Below, piece after piece: positions 4,065 through 53,565 of a stretch of 64,000 nucleotides of DNA; position 1 is the first letter of the stretch; each line of letters opens with the position of its first letter. A program made the position numbers and the translations under genes. Location: assembly GCA_023898465.1 (NCBI GenBank), contig CP060223.1, forward strand, positions 288,001 to 352,000. Direction: 5' to 3'. Under the pieces are notes generated by a model. It had not been told where the DNA came from. It was given only the letters and a program-made list of their open reading frames with translations, and did no database searches. Origin of the DNA: Candidatus Nomurabacteria bacterium. GTDB lineage: Bacteria > Patescibacteriota > Patescibacteriia > HK-STAS-PATE-3.

Positions 4065-5090
4065 ATGCCACGTAAGACTTCTGCAAAACGACGACTCGCC
4101 ATTAACGGATTTGGCCGAATTGGACGAGCTGCTTTTAAAATTGCTTTAGAAAGTAAAAAGTTTGATATTGTCGCGATTAACGACCTGACTGATACCGAAA
4201 GTCTGGCCATGCTCCTGAAGCATGATTCGGTGTATCGCAACTTCAATCACAAGGTTGGCTTTACCAAGGATTCCCTTATTGTGGATGGTAAAAAAATTCG
4301 CATTCTGGCTGAAAAAGATCCGGCTATGTTGCCTTGGAAGCGTCTGAAGATTGACGTGGTGCTCGAATGTACTGGCCGCTTTGTGAAGGATGGCGCTGCC
4401 CGGGCCCATATCAAAGCAGGTGCCAAAGCAGCTGTCGTTTCTGCGCCAACCAAGGGCGGAGACATCCCAACAGCCTTACTCGGTGTGCGTCAACCAAAGC
4501 CCGGCGAGCAGGTCGTTTCTAACGCTTCTTGCACTACGAATAACGTCGCACCGGTCACTCGAGTGATTATGGAGAATTTCGGCGTGTTGCGAGCAGCCAT
4601 GACCACGATTCACTCCTACACGGCTGAGCAAAACTTGGTTGACGGCCCACCGCCACCATTGCACCGCGATTTACGACGTATGCGAGCTGCTGCGGTTAAC
4701 CTCGTACCAACCACTTCTGGCGCGGCTATTGCCACGACCGAGGTGATTCCTGAGCTTAAGGGCTCCTTTGATGGTTTTGCTATTCGCGTGCCAACACCAG
4801 TGGTGTCCTTGTCTGACTTCACTTTCCTGGTAAAGAAAAAGACCACTATCGAAGAAGTAAACCGAGCCATGAAAAAGGCGGCTGAGGATCCTTCCTACAA
4901 AAATGTGCTGGCCGTAAATGAAGAACCACGCGTCTCTAGCGACTTTATTGGCGACCCACATTCTGCAATAGTTGACTTACCGCTCACGAATGTGATAGGT
5001 GGCGACCTTGTCAAAATCGTGGCTTGGTATGATAATGAATGGGGATATTCAACGCGGCTGGTAGAGATGGCACAGAAAGTGCATATCTAA
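4065..5090 (+). CDS. gap: glyceraldehyde-3-phosphate dehydrogenase
   Basis: INGFGRIGR Rossmann motif and SNASCTTN active-site Cys motif. Confidence 0.9.
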   Translation: MPRKTSAKRRLAINGFGRIGRAAFKIALESKKFDIVAINDLTDTESLAMLLKHDSVYRNFNHKVGFTKDSLIVDGKKIRILAEKDPAMLPWKRLKIDVVLECTGRFVKDGAARAHIKAGAKAAVVSAPTKGGDIPTALLGVRQPKPGEQVVSNASCTTNNVAPVTRVIMENFGVLRAAMTTIHSYTAEQNLVDGPPPPLHRDLRRMRAAAVNLVPTTSGAAIATTEVIPELKGSFDGFAIRVPTPVVSLSDFTFLVKKKTTIEEVNRAMKKAAEDPSYKNVLAVNEEPRVSSDFIGDPHSAIVDLPLTNVIGGDLVKIVAWYDNEWGYSTRLVEMAQKVHI

Positions 5091-5381: not shown

Positions 5382-5456
5382 GGCCCTATCGTCTAGTGGC
5401 TAGGACGCATGGTTCTCATCCATGTAACAGGGGTTCGATTCCCCTTAGGGCTACCA
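5382..5456 (+). tRNA. tRNA-Glu (anticodon CTC), CCA encoded
   Basis: Cloverleaf folded by hand: acceptor GGCCCTA/TAGGGCT, D-arm GTCTAGTGGCTAGGAC (near-identical to E. coli tRNA-Glu), anticodon stem CATGG/CCATG with loop TTCTCAT, T-arm AGGGGTTCGATTCCCCT, discriminator A, CCA. Confidence 0.9.
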
Positions 5457-5612
5457 GCCCGCTTAGCGGGCTCTGCTGATAAGGATAGAAGAAAGTAAAA
5501 GTGGAATGTTTAGCATGTTGTTTTATAAGTTAAGGAATCGAACGGGCGAGGACGTCTGCCAGCGGCAGGCGACCGCAAGCCCCGGCCTGAAGTCCCGATA
5601 GGGACGGAATGG

Positions 5613-5634
5613 TCGATTCCCCTTAGGGCTACCA
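5613..5634 (+). repeat. 22-bp direct repeat identical to the tRNA-Glu 3' end (TCGATTCCCCTTAGGGCTACCA); att-like remnant
   Basis: Exact 22-nt match to 5435-5456, located 157 bp downstream of the complete tRNA. Confidence 0.8.
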
Positions 5635-5927
5635 CGGGCCATTGCGCCGTGCGGACTGCGTCCGACCAGGTCGGACTCCGCCCTTACGGCGCATGTCCCT
5701 TTCCCCATTGCAAACAGTCCCTCTCGGCAGCCTCGAGGTCCTTGGTTTGCAACGGGGGCCCCGATAAGAGTGCGGGCCCAAGTGCTCGGCATTACAAAGC
5801 GTCCCAGAAAAAATGCCAGACACAAGTCTTCGGCATTTAATGAGAAGAAGACGTAGGTCAACTTCAGAGTGAGTCACCACAAACATCGTCGCTGCGCTAG
5901 AGGCAGCATAATTCAGGAGGAAAAAAT

Positions 5928-22828: not shown

Positions 22829-22949
22829 ACGCAGATGCCCACTTTTCCTACCACGTTTTTGCTCTGCCGGTCAATACAAAGCGTGTGTGTCATTGACTTT
22901 TCGCTTGAGGCGAGTTAGCGTTTTGTTAGACCTTTACAGGGAGGGAAGT

Positions 22950-23216
22950 ATGGCTTCACTGCAGGTTTTTGTGCAAGAGGGCTCCAGGAAGCTCGTGCCT
23001 TTGGAAATCGTACTGGACGGAGGGCGTTTGACCTTCCGGGTGATTACCTCGCTCGGAGAAATGGGGGATACTGAGGCGCGCAGTGTGCTTGCCTCCTTGG
23101 TGGAGACCTGCCAAGGCGAGGGCTTGGCGTATACTCCAGAGTGCATTCGGGATGGAGATCGGCATGTGATCGACATGCTCTTTTTTACCCTGAATGCAAA
23201 GCCCACCACCTCGTGA
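22950..23216 (+). CDS. GC-rich small hypothetical protein (88 aa)
   Basis: Internal ATG preceded by an AGGGAGGGA RBS. About 55% GC. Confidence 0.35.
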   Translation: MASLQVFVQEGSRKLVPLEIVLDGGRLTFRVITSLGEMGDTEARSVLASLVETCQGEGLAYTPECIRDGDRHVIDMLFFTLNAKPTTS

Positions 23217-23264
23217 GTGGAGGAGATGATCAGAAACGTCTCGGTTATACCGGGGCGTTTTCCT

Positions 23265-24362
23265 TTAGACGTCGCGTACTCGGAATGACTTCCAGGCCAG
23301 TAAGAAGGACAGGAGAATCCAGCCACCCAGGATGCTGAACTCATAACCGAAGTCACTTATTGGGCTGCCATTTACTGCTACGCCACGTAAGACCTTGAGC
23401 AGTGAAGTGAGTGGCAAGAAGTCAACAATCCGTTCCACAGCTGGTGGTAACATGTCAGGCGAGAAAAAGACGCCAGACAAGAACATCATCGGCGTGGTGA
23501 AAGCATTAGACATTGCCTCAGCAGTATTCACTGTTTTTGCTTGTCCAGCCACAAAGAATCCGATGTTGAGGAAGACGATTGTGCCAATAAGTGTAACCAG
23601 AGTAAGCAGTAACAAGCTGCCGTGAATTTCGACACCAAAGACTAAGCGGGCCACGCTGAGAATTACCGTGATCTGCATTAAAGACAGCACGAGATAAGAT
23701 CCAACCTCAGCCACTAAGAAATTTCGTACCTTAATCGGCGTAGCTAATAAACGCTTGAGGATTTTTCGTTCACGATAGCGCGTAATGCCCACAGCAATAC
23801 CAATGATGGCCGAGAACATGATAGCCATGCCCAGGATGCCCGGGGTAAGGAAATCGAGGTATTTCACATCTTGACCCTGCACACCCTCGGTTGCCACGGT
23901 GAAAATAGGTTGGGCGCCCGCGATTTGCAGATTTACCTTATTTAAAAAGTCATTAAGCACGCTGACGATAATACCGCTCTGCTGATTTGTTTCATCCAGT
24001 ATAACGGTGAAGTTGAGCGGCTCAGTTACTTCATTTTGGGGGACTTGGCCATAGGCGTCTGGGATAACAATAATCCCATCGAGCTCACCATCTTTCATGC
24101 TTTGCACCGCCTCATCCTTATTCGTAATATCGGATTCAGTGAAAATTTCTAAGGAGAACATTTGCTCGCGCAGCATTTGAGAGGATTCAGTTTGTGCCTC
24201 ATCAATCACTGCAATATCAAAGGAGGCTGGAGCATCAAAATTAAATAAGCCAAAAATAACTAGGAAGAGCAGGGGAAAGACCAGCGACCAAAAGAGAGAC
24301 TGCCGGTCGCGAAACAGCATTTTGAGGTTGGAAAGGAAAAGCCTCCAGGTAGGGTTATTCAC
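23265..24362 (-). CDS. ABC-2 type transporter permease
   Basis: 365 aa: N-terminal TM, large extracytoplasmic loop, then a 5-TM ABC-2 membrane domain. Overlaps the ATPase gene. Confidence 0.7.
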   Translation of the reverse strand: MNNPTWRLFLSNLKMLFRDRQSLFWSLVFPLLFLVIFGLFNFDAPASFDIAVIDEAQTESSQMLREQMFSLEIFTESDITNKDEAVQSMKDGELDGIIVIPDAYGQVPQNEVTEPLNFTVILDETNQQSGIIVSVLNDFLNKVNLQIAGAQPIFTVATEGVQGQDVKYLDFLTPGILGMAIMFSAIIGIAVGITRYRERKILKRLLATPIKVRNFLVAEVGSYLVLSLMQITVILSVARLVFGVEIHGSLLLLTLVTLIGTIVFLNIGFFVAGQAKTVNTAEAMSNAFTTPMMFLSGVFFSPDMLPPAVERIVDFLPLTSLLKVLRGVAVNGSPISDFGYEFSILGGWILLSFLLAWKSFRVRDV

Positions 24363-25320
24363 GGAGTTTGCTCCCGGTTAAGTGCAAGAAGACATCCTCC
24401 AAGGTTGCTCGAGTGACTTCAATATCTTCCAAGTGCATTTGATGCTGCTCAGCCCAACGGATGAGTGGAGGGAGTACGGCTGAGGCGTGAGTTATTTGTA
24501 ATCGGTATGAGTTTGGCTCACCGTTCATTTCAGCTTTGATGACACCTTCCATGTTAGTGAATTCACTCACTTCTACAGCCTGCGGTGTTTTAAAAGCAAG
24601 ATGGGCAGACGCGTCCAGCTGATCAATCAGTGCCTTAGGCGTATCCAAAGCTACAATCTTACCGTGATCTATGACGCCAATACGATCACAAAGCTCCTCA
24701 GCTTCTTCCATATAGTGGGTGGTGAGGACGACGGTCTTGCCTTGTTCCTTAATCTTGCGAATGAATTGCCACATATGCCGACGCGCCTGTGGGTCCAGAC
24801 CAGTGGTCGGCTCATCCAAGAATACAATCTCCGGATCATTCACTAGGCTAACGGCAATTGAGAAACGTTGCTGCTGACCGCCGGATAATTCCTTTACCAG
24901 TGCTTTTCGCTTTTCGTAGAGGTCAACAATCTTCAGTAGCTCCTCAGCATTTTTTTGCTTTGGGTAAAAAGTGCCAAACAGTTTCAAAATTTCTTCCAGT
25001 GACAGGTAATCGTAAAAAGATGATGACTGTAGTTGGATACCAATGCGTTGCTTTACTTTTTCTACCTCGTGATGAGAATCAAAGCCAAGCACCTTGGCTG
25101 AGCCTCGGGTGGGTACTTGCAGGCCTTCAATTATTTCCAGTGTGGTGGTTTTCCCGGCGCCATTAGGACCCAGGAAGCCAAAAATTTCACCTTGGGCCAC
25201 TTGGAAACTAATGCCGTCCACTGCAGTAAGTTTGCCTGAGCCTTTACCCGGGAGAGGAAATTCTTTGACTAGTTCTTGTACTTCGATGACAGACATAAAG
25301 CAAAGGGGAGTGTAGTACAT
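24355..25320 (-). CDS. ABC transporter ATP-binding protein
   Basis: Walker A GPNGAGKTT, signature LSGGQQQR, Walker B LDEPTTGLD. Confidence 0.9.
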   Translation of the reverse strand: MYYTPLCFMSVIEVQELVKEFPLPGKGSGKLTAVDGISFQVAQGEIFGFLGPNGAGKTTTLEIIEGLQVPTRGSAKVLGFDSHHEVEKVKQRIGIQLQSSSFYDYLSLEEILKLFGTFYPKQKNAEELLKIVDLYEKRKALVKELSGGQQQRFSIAVSLVNDPEIVFLDEPTTGLDPQARRHMWQFIRKIKEQGKTVVLTTHYMEEAEELCDRIGVIDHGKIVALDTPKALIDQLDASAHLAFKTPQAVEVSEFTNMEGVIKAEMNGEPNSYRLQITHASAVLPPLIRWAEQHQMHLEDIEVTRATLEDVFLHLTGSKLRE

Positions 25321-25871
25321 TCAAATGTGGGTGTAAAGGGAGCATTTGACATATTTTCATATTGTTTTATCCTTAGTCAGGATCTTTCGAAGAAATCAAT
25401 AGAGATGGCCTAACCCGCTCTTGGGGTTGAAGTCAACGTTGTTGCATTTCTCGGGTCCCTTTGGGACTCATGCAACCGATCGACAAACTGTTCTTCGGAA
25501 CAGGGGTCTGAGCCAAAACCAGTGTCGTGTACGTTGTACGACGTTGCGACTCTGGGGTTGTGGGGCATGCAGTAGAGTTCCGTACAGAAACTCATCGAGT
25601 AAGAAAATCGAGGGTTGAGAAGCCCCACGATCTCGACTAGCATGTACCCTGGACTTCGGTCCGCTGGGTGTTCGTCCCTTCGTGGTATATCGGCCTTCAT
25701 GGTCGAGCGCACATCCATGGCTAAACAATAGAAAGATCCTTTTGACCAGGACCTAGTCCTGTGCTCTCGAGGGGTGACACCACGTGTGCTCACCCCTCTC
25801 TTTCTTGCTTGTTTTCTGCTTCTCGCCTAGACTGACCATAGCTCTTTTGTTTCGTCGATCGAGGAGGGACC

Positions 25872-26051
25872 ATGAGGTTGTTTCTTCTTTGTGTCACCAT
25901 CGTCGCCCTGCCAAGCATGTTTGGCTATGCGGTGCTATGGGCGAGTGCTCGAGGAGCAAAGGCCATCGAGGATGAGCTCCCTGACGACAGGGAAGGGCGG
26001 CGGGCAGCTCATTTGGCCAGATCGCTTGATCCACCTTTTCCTGACTACTAA
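25872..26051 (+). CDS. small secreted/membrane peptide (59 aa) not in the supplied ORF track
   Basis: ATG preceded by a GAGGAGGGA RBS. Hydrophobic N-terminus (MRLFLLCVTIVALPSMFGYAVLWASA). GC-rich. Followed by a terminator. Confidence 0.4.
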   Translation: MRLFLLCVTIVALPSMFGYAVLWASARGAKAIEDELPDDREGRRAAHLARSLDPPFPDY

Positions 26052-26070
26052 GTCAGGTGCATTCCATTGA

Positions 26071-26097
26071 GACGACTTTGCCCGGAGTCGTCTTTTC
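26071..26097 (+). terminator. rho-independent terminator
   Basis: GACGACT-loop-AGTCGTC stem followed by TTTTC. Confidence 0.55.
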
Positions 26098-26147
26098 ATA
26101 GCGTCTTTTCGAGAAAATTGCTATAGTGGAAGCTGAATTACGGGGGT

Positions 26148-27980
26148 ATGACGCAAAAATTTTCTTCATTAGAAAAAATAGCTGCCCAGCTTCGTTATGA
26201 TGTGCTCACCATGACGTCGCGGGCCGGATCAGGTCATCCATCATCTTGCTTATCCGCAGTCGAGATAATGACTGCTTTGTTTTTTGGAGGAGTATTTCAC
26301 GCTGATCTGACGAAGCCGGAGTATGCGAATAACGACCGACTTATTTTTTCAAAAGGTCATGCTGCTCCATTGCTCTATGCGCTCTACGCAAGTGCAGGTC
26401 AAGTAACGGAAAAAGAGCTGCTGAGTTTGCGTGCGTTCCAAAGTCCGCTGGAGGGGCACCCTAGTCGCGCTTTTCCTTACACTGAGGTGCCGACCGGATC
26501 GCTAGGACAAGGTTTATCCAATGGCATAGGTATGGCTGAGTACGCACACCGTCATCGTTTGTCGTATCACACCTATGTGCTTCTTGGTGACAGTGAAATG
26601 AGTGAAGGTTCAAACTGGGAGGCAATGGAGTATGCGGCCTCGCATAAGTTGAGTGCACTCGTGGCGCTTATTGACCTGAATGATTTAGGTCAAAGCATGC
26701 GCACTCTGCCACTCGCTAAGGCGGAACAATTAGCTGCTCGGATAAAGTCATTTGGATGGCAAGTCTATGTTGTTGATGGGCATACTATCCCACAACTCTT
26801 GTCCGTGTTGAGTAAGGCAAAAAAGAGTCTCCAAAAACCCGTAGCGATTATTGCTCGGACGGTAAAAGGGAAAGGCGTCTCTTTTATCGAGGGGCGTCAA
26901 GGCTGGCATGGAAAAGCGCTGAGCAATGAAGAGCTGGAAAAAGCTTTAAAAGAAATTCCGTATCCAAAAAATAGAGTGCGAGGAAAGCTAGCCCAGCCGC
27001 AGAAAAAATCCCTGCCAGAATCAACAGCACGTCCAGTGCCGAATTGCCAGTACCGTAAGAGCACTTCAGTTTCCACTCGACGGGCGGCTGCCCATGCACT
27101 TGTCCGATTGGCGCCAAAGTATCCGGAGCTGCTTGTCCTAGACACTGAGGTAGGAAACTCAACGCATACGGAAGACTTTGCCGAAGTGTATCCTGAGCGT
27201 TTTTTGCAGTGTGGCATAGCTGAACAAAATGCCGTTGGCATGGTTAATGGCTTAGCGCGTCGCGGCGCTTTACCAGTCTACGCTACCTTTAGCGCCTTTC
27301 TCACACGAGCCTTTGATCAGCTGCGCATGAATCAATACAGCGACACGCGTCAGGTGTATATTGGTACGCATTCGGGTGTTTCTATTGGCGCGGATGGTCC
27401 ATCGCAAATGGGTCTGCAGGACATTGCCATGTTTCGTTCGCTGGAAAAAAGCGTGGTGCTTTATCCATCTGATGCCTTTGCAGCTGAGCGCTTAGTTGAG
27501 GAGGCTATGAAGCAGAGCGGTATGGTCTATATCCGCGCGACCCGGCCTCGAGTACCTATACTGTACAGCGCAGGGACAAAGTTTATTGTCGGCGGCAGTC
27601 AGACTTTGCGTCAAAGTACAAATGATAAACTCACCATTCTCGCCGCTGGCATCACTGTGTTTGAGGCATTAAAAGCTGCTGATGCATTAGCTGGCAGGGG
27701 CGTTAAGGTGCGAGTGATCGACCTCTATAGTGTGAAGCCGCTTGATGTGTCAACCTTACGCAAGGCGGCTAAGCAAACGAAAGCCTTCATCGTTGTAGAG
27801 GATCATAACCCTGAGGGCGGTATTGCCGAAGCAGTGCGTAGTGCTTTTATCCAATGCCCAGTACCCATCTATAGCCTAGCGGTGCAAAAACGACCCAAGA
27901 GCGGAACGCCAGAAGAACTTTTAAAATATTGCAATATTGATGCCAGTGCCATACTTCGTAAAGCGCAGACACTCATATGA
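26148..27980 (+). CDS. tkt: transketolase (single-chain)
   Basis: N-terminal TPP-binding domain (SGHPSS..., GDSEMSEG), pyrimidine-binding and C-terminal domains. Confidence 0.85.
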   Translation: MTQKFSSLEKIAAQLRYDVLTMTSRAGSGHPSSCLSAVEIMTALFFGGVFHADLTKPEYANNDRLIFSKGHAAPLLYALYASAGQVTEKELLSLRAFQSPLEGHPSRAFPYTEVPTGSLGQGLSNGIGMAEYAHRHRLSYHTYVLLGDSEMSEGSNWEAMEYAASHKLSALVALIDLNDLGQSMRTLPLAKAEQLAARIKSFGWQVYVVDGHTIPQLLSVLSKAKKSLQKPVAIIARTVKGKGVSFIEGRQGWHGKALSNEELEKALKEIPYPKNRVRGKLAQPQKKSLPESTARPVPNCQYRKSTSVSTRRAAAHALVRLAPKYPELLVLDTEVGNSTHTEDFAEVYPERFLQCGIAEQNAVGMVNGLARRGALPVYATFSAFLTRAFDQLRMNQYSDTRQVYIGTHSGVSIGADGPSQMGLQDIAMFRSLEKSVVLYPSDAFAAERLVEEAMKQSGMVYIRATRPRVPILYSAGTKFIVGGSQTLRQSTNDKLTILAAGITVFEALKAADALAGRGVKVRVIDLYSVKPLDVSTLRKAAKQTKAFIVVEDHNPEGGIAEAVRSAFIQCPVPIYSLAVQKRPKSGTPEELLKYCNIDASAILRKAQTLI

Positions 27981-32481: not shown

Positions 32482-32769
32482 GCTCTTTACACTCGAGAAG
32501 TTTGAACAAGCGTTCAGGCTTCTCGTCCGCTCAGCATGTGCGATCACTTGATGGTTCCTTTAAATTTTGATCGCCACCAAAATTTGTCTGCTATCAAGCG
32601 GCTGCTATGTTGAGTGGACGAGAGGTTAATTCTCTTCTTATGCAAATCATTTACTCCATCATTTCTATACTTATTCTCTGTGTTTTGGGAATCATTTTCC
32701 GAGTGCTTACTTGGACAGAGGAAGAAAACTAATTGTCTTTGTTGTAAGACTTTAGGTGTCTGTAGAAAA

Positions 32770-32961
32770 ATGAACAAAGCTACACTAATAAAAGGATTAC
32801 TACGTTTTGGTGCGAGCAGCTTATTACTCTCAGGGTATTATTTTCATATTTTTTCTACCGATAGCATATTGGTTGACTTAGTCGTTCCTCTTGCTACTTT
32901 TATCTTTGCCGTCTTTTTGATTGATAAAGGTGTAGATAGAGCTTTCAGAAAACTCAACTAA
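32770..32961 (+). CDS. hypothetical small membrane protein (AT-rich region)
   Basis: Internal ATG with two hydrophobic helices. Weak evidence. Confidence 0.2.
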   Translation: MNKATLIKGLLRFGASSLLLSGYYFHIFSTDSILVDLVVPLATFIFAVFLIDKGVDRAFRKLN

Positions 32962-33095
32962 AAATGGGGGAAAGAACGCCTAAGCGTTTCTTCCCCACAC
33001 TCCAATAGAGAGAATGCTGCAGCGCGGTTGCTACGTCAACGCCTGATTTTTAGCTTGGAAAAGTTAGAAAAAAATGGTATACTAAGATCGAAGAA

Positions 33096-50612: not shown

Positions 50613-51031
50613 GTGCTGACGTGCGCCGGATGACTGCTCCGCCTTAGGTGGAGAGGAAAGTCCGAACACCCCCCAAGCCCCCCATTTTTGAGAGGTTTGT
50701 GGAAGTAGGTCGTTCCGAAAGGGAACCGAGCAATTGGTTGTAAGCTTTCGGCCGAATAACCAATGGTTTAGGGAAAGTGTCACAGAGACAATACTGCCGA
50801 TGATCTCGCTTAGCGGGATACAGGTAATAGGTGAAAAGTAAGGGCCTAAGAATCCTTTCTCTTCATAGGTGACTATGAGGAGTGAAAAACCCGACCTGGT
50901 GCAAGATCGCATAGGTCTAGTCATTCGACTGGACGGGTAGATCGCATGATCCCGACGGCGACGTCGGGGCTAGAGAGATAGTCATCCCTCATTATGAGGA
51001 CAGAATTCGGCTTATAGGTGTGCGTCAGCAC
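50613..51031 (+). ncRNA. rnpB: RNase P RNA, bacterial type A
   Basis: Conserved blocks GAGGAAAGTCCGAACAC (P4), ACAGAGACAA, GGTAATAGGTGAAAAG, GACAGAATTCGGCTTAT (3' P4 strand). P1 helix GTGCTGACG/CGTCAGCAC closes the molecule. About 420 nt. Confidence 0.85.
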
Positions 51032-52432: not shown

Positions 52433-53565
52433 AAAAACCACGCATCGCTTTAGTTCATGAGCACTTAGCCCAGGACGGGGGAGCAGAAAAAGTGCTGAAA
52501 GTGTTTCAGGAAATGTTTCCTGAGGCGCCTACCTATACCTTGGTATTTGATAAACGCAAAACGAATCGGGCCTTTTTAGGAAAGGATATTCGCACGTCTT
52601 TTATTCAAAAGTTGCCTTTCGGGGTACGTCATTATCAAATGTATTTGCCACTTATGCCATCGGCGGTTGAGCAATTCAACTTAGGTGACTACGATATTGT
52701 GCTCTCTTCCAGTTCTGCTTTATCAAAGGGCGTGCTCACGCTTCCAGAGACTCTTCACATTTGTTACTGCCATTCACCAACGCGCTATCTGTGGAGTGAT
52801 ACGCATCGTTACGTGCAGGAGCTACCCTACAATCGTCTGATCAAAAAGTTTGTTCCGATGCTGCTTAATCGCATTCGCATGTGGGACCGTTTAGCGGCTG
52901 AGCGAGTTGATACTTTTATTGCAAATTCATACGCTATCCGACGTCGCATTCAGAAATATTATCAGCGCGACAGTCAGGTTATTTATCCGCCGGTTGATGC
53001 ACAGTCATTTAGTATTAGCCCGACTATTGGCAATTACTATTTGATCGGTGGTCGCTTAGTTGCGTACAAGCGCTATGACCTGGCGGTGATGGCCTTTAAT
53101 CGCCTTGGTATTCCTTTGAAGATATTTGGCGATGGGCCGGAACTTAAAAACCTCAAAAGCATTGCTAAGTCTAATATTGAGTTTGTCGGCAAAGTTTCGC
53201 CGGATGAATTAAAAAAGCTGTATCGTGAGTGCGTGGCTTTTCTTCACCCACAAGAAGAAGACTTTGGCATCACTGCAATTGAGGCAATGGCGTCTGGTCG
53301 TCCTGTTATTGCGTATGCGGCTGGTGGTGCGCTGGAAACAGTAATACCCGGAAAAACAGGCGAGCTTTTTGATGATCAAAATTGGGAAACCTTAGCAGAC
53401 ACAATAGTCCGTTTCCATCCCGAACAGTATTCACCAGAAGAAATTCGTGCGCACGCTTTGCAGTTTGATACCGAAGTGTTTAAGAAGCGGGTGCACGACT
53501 TTGTCGATCAAAAATACGCTGAGCATTCAACTATTCGTAATTCATCACATCCCTATGGAGCTTGA
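52429..53565 (+). CDS. GT4-family glycosyltransferase
   Basis: GT4 fold with EAMASGRPVIAYAAGGALE motif. ATGA overlap with the upstream gene. Confidence 0.75.
   Translation: MKKPRIALVHEHLAQDGGAEKVLKVFQEMFPEAPTYTLVFDKRKTNRAFLGKDIRTSFIQKLPFGVRHYQMYLPLMPSAVEQFNLGDYDIVLSSSSALSKGVLTLPETLHICYCHSPTRYLWSDTHRYVQELPYNRLIKKFVPMLLNRIRMWDRLAAERVDTFIANSYAIRRRIQKYYQRDSQVIYPPVDAQSFSISPTIGNYYLIGGRLVAYKRYDLAVMAFNRLGIPLKIFGDGPELKNLKSIAKSNIEFVGKVSPDELKKLYRECVAFLHPQEEDFGITAIEAMASGRPVIAYAAGGALETVIPGKTGELFDDQNWETLADTIVRFHPEQYSPEEIRAHALQFDTEVFKKRVHDFVDQKYAEHSTIRNSSHPYGA

Follow-up and report, generated by a model that had tools for sequence, protein, structure and literature searches.

A candidate lineage-specific structured RNA of about 430 nt upstream of a small open reading frame in a Patescibacteria genome

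The locus and its predicted fold

The 64-kb stretch of DNA analyzed here (hereafter the window) belongs to a genome of the Patescibacteria, or candidate phyla radiation, and is densely filled with housekeeping genes. The organism comes from an activated-sludge community, and SRR12358675 and SRR12358676 contain its DNA. The subject of this study is a strongly folding stretch at positions 25379-25808 of the + strand, which lies in the gap separating a divergently oriented ABC ATPase gene from a transketolase gene (26148-27980) and which is followed by a small open reading frame (ORF) of 59 amino acids (aa). The neighboring genes encode DnaJ, dihydrouridine synthase, an ABC-2 transporter pair (23265-25296, - strand), transketolase, ROK kinase, RpiB, Rpe, AlaRS, SSB and PGK. 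On a crude ORF map, this gap is the biggest stretch of the window that is free of long ORFs, with a length of 575 nt without the 59-aa ORF and 827 nt with it. An apparent 1-kb gap at 52433-53446 was rejected as an artefact of the same map, as a 402-aa ORF covers these positions. The genes on both sides of the structured stretch look complete: the transketolase could be aligned with its homologs over nearly its full length, and the homologs matched by the two ABC genes are full-length as well.

An earlier note on this DNA had described 25390-25870 as a GC-rich region with many hairpins and had offered three explanations for it, namely a structured RNA, a leader of the small ORF or foreign DNA. 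The hairpins that it listed are all present at the places named, and the region folds better than expected by chance. For 25380-25741 of the + strand, the minimum free energy is -138.6 kcal/mol, compared to -112.3 ± 5.5 kcal/mol in 300 dinucleotide shuffles, none of which reached the native value (z = -4.82); the z-score of the - strand is -2.43. The RNase P RNA encoded in the same window (50618-51030), which served as calibration, has a z-score of -5.21 on the strand that encodes it and of -1.73 on the other one, and 39 other segments of 362 nt gave a mean z-score of -0.22 (standard deviation 1.05, minimum -3.07). Among 1818 composition-corrected windows, the stretch ranks approximately 19th to 21st (top 1-2%), in the company of the RNase P RNA and of two further stretches that are unusual. 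We therefore regard the fold signal as real; it is strand-specific and equal in strength to that of the RNase P RNA of the same window.

The extent of the signal could also be narrowed. Over the full span from 25380 to 25870, the z-scores are -3.9 (+) and -3.3 (-), and they are near 0 for the flanks at 25297-25379 and 25809-25871 as well as for the 59-aa ORF. Because of these quiet flanks, we place the structured element at 25379-25808; the structured region of the earlier note is thus real, while the element itself is somewhat shorter than proposed. Its GC content is indeed elevated, but only modestly so, with 0.522 in 25380-25808 compared to 0.473 in the whole window (0.511 in the RNase P RNA).

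Nearly all helices of the fold have pairing probabilities above 0.9. The two UUCG hairpins, CTGTTC-TTCG-GAACAG at 25488-25503 and (T)GGAC-TTCG-GTCC(G) at 25650-25663, account for two of the seven UUCG hairpins with a stem of at least 5 bp that occur on both strands of the window, and both are on the + strand of the structured stretch. A helix that had been drawn within 25524-25550 exists as well, although its pairing register differs slightly in the minimum-free-energy fold, where it consists of GUCGUG/UGCGAC plus ACGUU/GACGU. In the fold of 25380-25830, 15 of the 147 pairs are G-U pairs, which would become A-C mismatches on the opposite strand. The asymmetry of the signal between the strands and its dependence on G-U pairs led us to reject a replication origin or a cruciform acting at the DNA level.

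The features of the locus are collected in Table 1. The closing helix P1 is predicted to enclose a multi-way junction with six arms, which are joined by linkers of 0-2 nt except for one of 9 nt (25722-25730) ahead of the 3′ strand of P1. The promoter-like site ends approximately 6 nt before this helix and would place the transcription start near 25379-25381. Back to back with it is a weaker promoter candidate on the - strand (25337-25309), which would serve the ABC operon.

Table 1. Features of the structured stretch and its surroundings
Feature	Positions	Strand	Basis and remarks
Sigma-70-like promoter candidate, TTGACA-16 nt-TATCCT	25346-25373	+	Consensus match only (10 of 12 positions)
Structured core	25379-25740	+	Minimum-free-energy fold, pairing probabilities
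Closing helix P1, 10-bp perfect inverted repeat	25379-25388 with 25731-25740	+	Fold and repeat search
Arm H2	25391-25451	+	Predicted fold
Arm H3, GGGTCCC-TTT-GGGACTC	25453-25469	+	Predicted fold and sequence
Arm H4, with C(UUCG)G hairpin 25488-25503 and arm 25519-25555	25472-25561	+	Predicted fold
Arm H5, with GAGA tetraloop hairpin 25612-25625	25562-25649	+	Predicted fold
Arm H6, second C(UUCG)G hairpin	25651-25662	+	Predicted fold
Arm H7	25663-25721	+	Predicted fold
3′ hairpin H8, CAGGAC-CUA-GUCCUG	25747-25761	+	Pairing probability 0.99; includes the CTAGTC of the earlier note
Terminator-like T1	25769-25822	+	GC-rich hairpin 25769-25798, pairing probability 1.00, no competing fold
Unstructured 63-nt spacer	25809-25871	+	z = +0.1
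Orphan 59-aa ORF, hypothetical protein H6760_01515 in the source genome	25872-26051	+	ORF list, annotation
Terminator-like hairpin T2, GACGACU-UUGCCCGG-AGUCGUC then UUUUCAU	26070-26097	+	Sequence and fold
Antisense 127-aa ORF, judged no gene	25410-25793	-	Longest ORF in the gap

Two terminator-like hairpins follow the core. The T1 hairpin can be written as GAGGGGUGA(CAC..GUG)UCACCCCUC, followed by UCUUUCUUGCUUGUUUUCUGCUUC; together with the U-rich tract on its 3′ side (UCUUUCUUGCUUGUUUUCUG), it resembles an intrinsic terminator with an imperfect U-tract. Given that this tract is interrupted by C and G, termination at T1 may be leaky. T2 is cleaner than T1 and closes the unit of RNA and small ORF approximately 50 nt before the transketolase start. 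Neither hairpin was listed by the terminator scan, which we attribute to the 12-nt bulged apical part of T1, which exceeds the 8-nt loop limit of the scan, and to the stem of T2, which can be extended into its T-run. The promoter scan found no promoter-like site between T1 and the 59-aa ORF, and the RNA and the small ORF together form a self-contained unit of approximately 750 bp.

A structured RNA of the + strand is the best reading of this stretch, because its fold matches that of the RNase P RNA of the same window in strength and strand specificity. This reading also draws on the sharply defined ends of the signal, on the promoter-like site next to the closing helix, on the hairpins at the 3′ end and on the stable tetraloops. 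We regard 25379-25808 as probably transcribed.

Coding capacity and known RNA families

Protein-coding potential was assessed with a log-likelihood score of codon usage, which is 0.26 ± 0.11 for real genes (5th percentile 0.11) and on average -0.41 for wrong frames (95th percentile -0.08). By this score, no coding signal was found for the ORFs inside the structured stretch (-0.14 to -0.28), and a further ORF at 25784-25975 scored -0.43. The longest ORF in the gap is the antisense one of 127 aa, which the earlier note had judged not to look like a protein. An exhaustive phmmer search of 1.84 billion representative sequences returned three matches for it; the two that were inspected are translated tandem DNA repeats, and the third is likewise a long protein that is matched at several places, so that repeat artefacts are all that was obtained in place of real homologs. 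This ORF has a codon-usage score of -0.16, outside the range of real genes, matches no family at a meaningful level, was called by no gene caller and is opposite to the strand that the fold signal favors. Despite its length, we consider it almost certain that it is not a protein-coding gene.

The 59-aa ORF is less easily classified. Its codon-usage score of -0.04 falls between those of real genes and wrong frames, its N-terminal segment is hydrophobic and its C-terminus charged, and a Shine-Dalgarno-like GAGGAGG is found at 25862-25868, four bases ahead of its ATG. In a search of 5.8 billion proteins its sole match was itself, and none of four ORFs of the region matched a family at a meaningful level in Pfam, PHROGs or NCBIfam.

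The position of this ORF raises the question of whether the structured stretch serves it. The RNA is co-oriented with the ORF, the T1 hairpin ends 73 nt upstream of it with no promoter in between, the Shine-Dalgarno sequence is strong and the unit has its own final terminator, T2. These observations would fit a cis-acting 5′ leader, either riboswitch-like or a protein-binding attenuator, that would sense a signal and control read-through of T1 into an ORF for a membrane peptide. We nevertheless consider a leader rather unlikely and prefer a stand-alone RNA, because the thermodynamic ensemble contains no antiterminator fold that would compete with the T1 hairpin (probability 1.00), because the Shine-Dalgarno sequence is predicted to lie unsequestered in a spacer with a z-score near 0, and because the body of approximately 390 nt ahead of the terminator is far larger than known aptamers and other sensor domains. 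Moreover, no riboswitch or leader family matched in Rfam, no homolog of a sensor domain was found in the searches made, the relatives checked have no conserved leader ahead of either the transketolase gene or the ABC operon, and the ORF to be regulated would be an orphan with ambiguous coding statistics.

The hydrophobic N-terminus of the peptide, together with a long and folded upstream RNA that has its own promoter and terminator, is also reminiscent of type I toxins or dual-function transcripts, in which a folded mRNA restrains translation of a small hydrophobic peptide, as in hok mRNA or in RNAIII with hld. Such a transcript is very unlikely here. The 59-aa ORF matches no toxin family, and the search for an antisense RNA gene gave nothing convincing, as the signals on the - strand are a weak terminator-like site (25754-25734) and the promoter candidate of the ABC operon only. 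The Shine-Dalgarno sequence is in the unstructured spacer and is not sequestered, and a leader of 490 nt is, to our knowledge, longer than those of type I systems.

To compare the stretch with known RNA families, Rfam 15 was searched at the gathering threshold with the whole window and at E-values up to 10 with pieces of 1001, 441 and 221 nt. No family matched the structured stretch at the gathering threshold in the search of the whole window, and at E-values up to 10 there were two chance matches (11-13 bits), both on the - strand over the T1 hairpin, and nothing else. In 25200-26200, Rfam 15 gave no match to group I introns, transfer-messenger RNA (tmRNA), signal recognition particle (SRP) RNA, RNase P RNA, 6S RNA, GOLLD, ROOL, OLE, raiA or HEARO. 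We take it that models of the last five are all in Rfam. The earlier note had suggested this search, with GOLLD, ROOL, raiA, OLE and group I introns among the models, and had itself found no sign of tmRNA, SRP RNA or RNase P RNA by eye, a view that the Rfam results bear out.

The RNase P RNA gene of the window is the one at 50618-51030 (class A, 164.8 bits). Near its beginning, this RNase P RNA carries an insertion of approximately 68 nt in place of 11 nt in the consensus, and it is overlapped by spurious ORFs on the - strand.

ARAGORN, run at its standard and at relaxed thresholds (80-90%) and with its intron search, reported no credible tRNA or tmRNA at the locus. At 80% thresholds it returned only a junk "permuted tmRNA" on the - strand, the tag of which, ATTLTSTPRAG, corresponds to C-terminal residues of the antisense ORF. 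No T-loop of the GGUUCGAAUCC type was seen when the sequence of the structured stretch was read, and neither Rfam nor ARAGORN detected fragments of rRNA or tmRNA near it.

A resemblance to group I introns, which the earlier note had called superficial, deserves closer consideration. GACTAG at 25635-25640 and CTAGTC at 25753-25758 could pair as GACUAG/CUAGUC, which resembles the R/S (P7) consensus of group I introns. A P3-like helix (25562-70 with 25640-49) can be drawn that would be crossed by this "P7", with two hairpins between "P3" and "P7" and one hairpin directly 3′ of the 3′ strand of "P3". Group I introns, mostly of subgroup IA, are abundant in Patescibacteria, and some of them are so divergent that they are missed by RF00028 (PMC13011429). 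Even so, a group-I-like ribozyme, be it degenerate or free-standing, appears highly improbable for the structured RNA. No group I model matched at E-values up to 10, even with pieces of 221-441 nt, at which chance matches of 11-13 bits surface; ARAGORN with its intron search found no split tRNA in 25001-26400; and the flanking genes appear complete, so that no gene is interrupted. No P4 elements of the P/Q type were seen, the would-be J8/7 has a length of approximately 30 nt and pairs with the 5′ end of the RNA in the predicted fold, and the 3′ strand of "P7" is part of a competing hairpin, H8. The GACTA...TAGTC arrangement itself occurs in approximately 3% of shuffles and of genomic windows, which supports the reservation made in the earlier note.

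Relatives of the locus and interpretation

At the structured stretch, the window does not differ in sequence from two other assemblies of the same organism (100% identity). Beyond them, no relatives of the region were found across 20 loci from related bacteria. None of five relatives inspected has a gap upstream of the transketolase gene that could hold the element, and in the three lineages with usable contigs on the other side (loci L019 to L023, permease identity of 62-71%) the space upstream of the ABC ATPase gene is only 105-197 nt. Searches with blastn and nhmmer of the window and all fetched loci, and with a covariance model of arms H4-H6 of the window and 11 loci, recovered the element itself only. 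A two-frame translated, multi-pattern degenerate DNA probe had no match in two scans of JGI metagenomes and one scan of IMG/VR, and blastn had none among phages and plasmids. Two of the three observations that the earlier note had named as speaking against a structured RNA were thus made: Rfam returned nothing, and the region is missing from every relative that could be examined.

Judged by these sequence comparisons, the RNA and the small ORF together are a lineage-specific insert at a break in synteny. A conserved regulator of the pentose-phosphate operon was rejected, because the relatives checked have no leader before the transketolase gene and because a terminator separates the RNA from that gene.

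The two flanks differ in their relatives. The ABC permease has relatives with 82%, 71% and 65-62% identity, whereas no homolog of the adjacent transketolase exceeds 59%; among species-representative genomes, the closest transketolases (56-57% identity) are those of Candidatus Kerfeldbacteria, although the NCBI label of the source genome is Nomurabacteria. The transketolase of the window is identical to a protein of a metagenome-assembled genome that carries the label Candidatus Nomurabacteria bacterium at NCBI. The two sides of the structured stretch may differ in their evolutionary history, which would fit a breakpoint of rearrangement or acquisition at this position.

The main rival of a functional RNA is that the insert is a non-functional remnant of foreign or decayed DNA, the stable fold of which is fortuitous or left over. 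The insert is an orphan at the DNA as well as the protein level and is absent at both flanks in relatives, its GC content is slightly above that of the genome and the codon usage of the 59-aa ORF is atypical. In addition, other stretches without recognized genes, in the window and in its relatives, also fold well, so that spacers in these genomes may fold strongly in general. On the other hand, a z-score equal to that of RNase P RNA and a strong asymmetry of the strands are not expected of random or decaying DNA, the closing helix is placed in exact register with the promoter and the terminator, stable tetraloops are enriched, and there are neither flanking repeats nor mobile-element genes. 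Small genomes of this kind (the contig is 1.08 Mb long) are generally thought to shed useless DNA fast, which also counts against a remnant. On balance, we hold a non-functional remnant to be somewhat unlikely.

A recognizable mobile element was rejected as well. The search for terminal repeats or target duplications at the structured stretch gave chance-level matches only, and a Pfam scan of the ten neighboring ORFs found no integrase, transposase, reverse transcriptase or Cas gene.

The reading that we tentatively favor, at a little less than an even chance, is that 25379-25808 encodes a lineage-specific structured RNA of approximately 430 nt that acts as a stand-alone non-coding RNA, with some read-through into the 59-aa ORF. 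Transcription would start approximately 6 nt after TTGACA-16-TATCCT. The first 10 nt are predicted, with high pairing probability, to pair with 25731-25740 and in this way to close off a compact core of multiple helices, which has a GNRA tetraloop and two C(UUCG)G tetraloops as caps. Most transcripts would end at T1 and yield a stable stand-alone RNA, the 5′ end of which would be shielded by the closing helix and the 3′ end by two hairpins. Some read-through would give a transcript of approximately 720 nt that carries the 59-aa ORF and ends at T2; we propose it because of the interruptions in the U-tract of T1 and because there is no further promoter ahead of the small ORF.

Several points weigh against this proposal. 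The promoter and the terminators are consensus matches only, and the U-tract of T1 is imperfect. There is no homolog and hence no support from covariation or conservation, and the identity of the two other assemblies means that they offer no population variation. A z-score from shuffles of a single sequence is suggestive, not proof, and one background segment reached -3.07. It should also be noted that relatives lack the region at both flanks, so that the lineage can do without it and the DNA could be decaying or of recent acquisition.

The three explanations of the earlier note are not mutually exclusive, and none of them is proven: the structured RNA is the best reading, it is inseparable from the leader of the small ORF, and the insert as a whole fits foreign or recently arisen DNA. 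Taken together, the evidence makes the stretch a credible but unproven lineage-specific RNA gene.

It is doubtful, though conceivable, that a new class of large, structured and non-coding RNAs of Patescibacteria, possibly catalytic or scaffold-forming, is seen here in its first representative. Such a class could have escaped notice so far because its relatives have diverged beyond the reach of sequence searches and because no search of Patescibacteria genomes with a covariance model of this RNA has been run. Patescibacteria genomes are among the smallest and most densely packed of bacteria, and a non-coding 430-nt element that folds as well as RNase P RNA is thus unlikely to be kept without a reason. 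If transcribed and stable, the RNA would join the few large bacterial RNAs without a known role, in a phylum whose RNA biology has barely been explored beyond its unusual introns. As an orphan of a single genome, it is a target for the mapping of metatranscriptomes and for structure-based searches of Patescibacteria rather than an established class.

Some other stretches of the window and of related loci are also structured or unusual. In the window at 5382-5927, the last 24-25 nt of tRNA-Glu(CTC), GGTTCGATTCCCCTTAGGGCTACCA at 5432-5456, recur one T short at 5612-5635, approximately 155 nt downstream, which looks like an att-type duplication from integration into the tRNA gene. The adjoining 5636-5927 has a GC content of approximately 0.57, no convincing ORF, z-scores of -3.9 and -4.6 on the two strands and no Rfam match. 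The spacer at 22829-23264 (+), between the dihydrouridine synthase and ABC permease genes, has a z-score of -2.9, and the strongest outlier of the background segments is 23000-23361 (-3.07). An 88-aa gene with gene-like codon usage (0.18) is called in this spacer in public assemblies, and a longer version of the ORF, with 147 aa, has no Pfam match.

Just downstream of ssb, the window has an overall z-score of -5.2 on the coding strand at 32482-33095 (+), where a 115-aa ORF without a Pfam match is found; within it, 32482-32613 (z = -6.2) contains a terminator plus a long hairpin. At the same position after ssb, locus L022 has a z-score of -8.9 (4452-4819, - strand), and the sequence is kept between L022 and L020 (8130-8370; nhmmer E = 1e-28). 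This structure may be a conserved RNA element or a terminator cluster of the lineage.

Between the Mur ligase and asparaginase genes of L022 (7151-7957, - strand) and L020 (10596-10993, - strand), an RNA-like element appears, when the folds are compared by eye, to be common to both loci. It is closed by GGGCAGAAC...GUUCUGCCC, starts with GGGCAGAACC(C/A)GGACAUCC, has a fold z-score of approximately -6 and no Rfam match, and does not occur in the window. An apparent gap of 537 nt in L019 (1447-1982) matches the infA (IF-1) region of L020 (4625-5019) in its DNA sequence (E = 6e-31) and thus probably holds an uncalled infA gene, not an RNA.

Comparison with known systems

In phylum and size, the RNA is comparable to the group I introns of Patescibacteria, with which it shares a P7-like GACUA/UAGUC pairing and a P3/P7 crossing that can be drawn. 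It differs from them in that it has no covariance-model score, interrupts no gene, shows no recognizable P4 (P/Q) elements and has a strong competing local structure. With RNAIII/hld, SgrS/SgrT and hok mRNA, it has in common that a highly folded RNA and an ORF for a small peptide form one transcription unit. In contrast to these systems, the ORF here is not part of the folded body but is downstream of an internal terminator, the peptide is without homologs, and an antisense partner was not found.

OLE, GOLLD, ROOL, raiA and HEARO are classes of large bacterial non-coding RNAs, the roles of which are obscure or have begun to emerge only recently. Their definition came from many genomes in which they are conserved and show covariation, whereas the RNA described here has no detectable relative, matches no Rfam model and is not located beside tRNAs, prophage genes or genes typical of those classes. 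In architecture it is like them: they extend over several hundred nt, with many helices around multi-way junctions, no coding capacity and no function that could be assigned from sequence, and the RNA here likewise appears to have its own promoter and terminator.

The RNA is distinguished from tmRNA by the lack of a tRNA-like T-arm, an ACCA end and a plausible reading frame for a tag, and from RNase P RNA in that the latter is encoded elsewhere in the window. In its predicted overall design, however, it resembles both of these RNAs, with a length of approximately 360-430 nt, a 5′ end that pairs with a distal 3′ segment and thereby closes a multi-helix core, and stable tetraloops, and its fold z-score is equal to that of the RNase P RNA of the same window.

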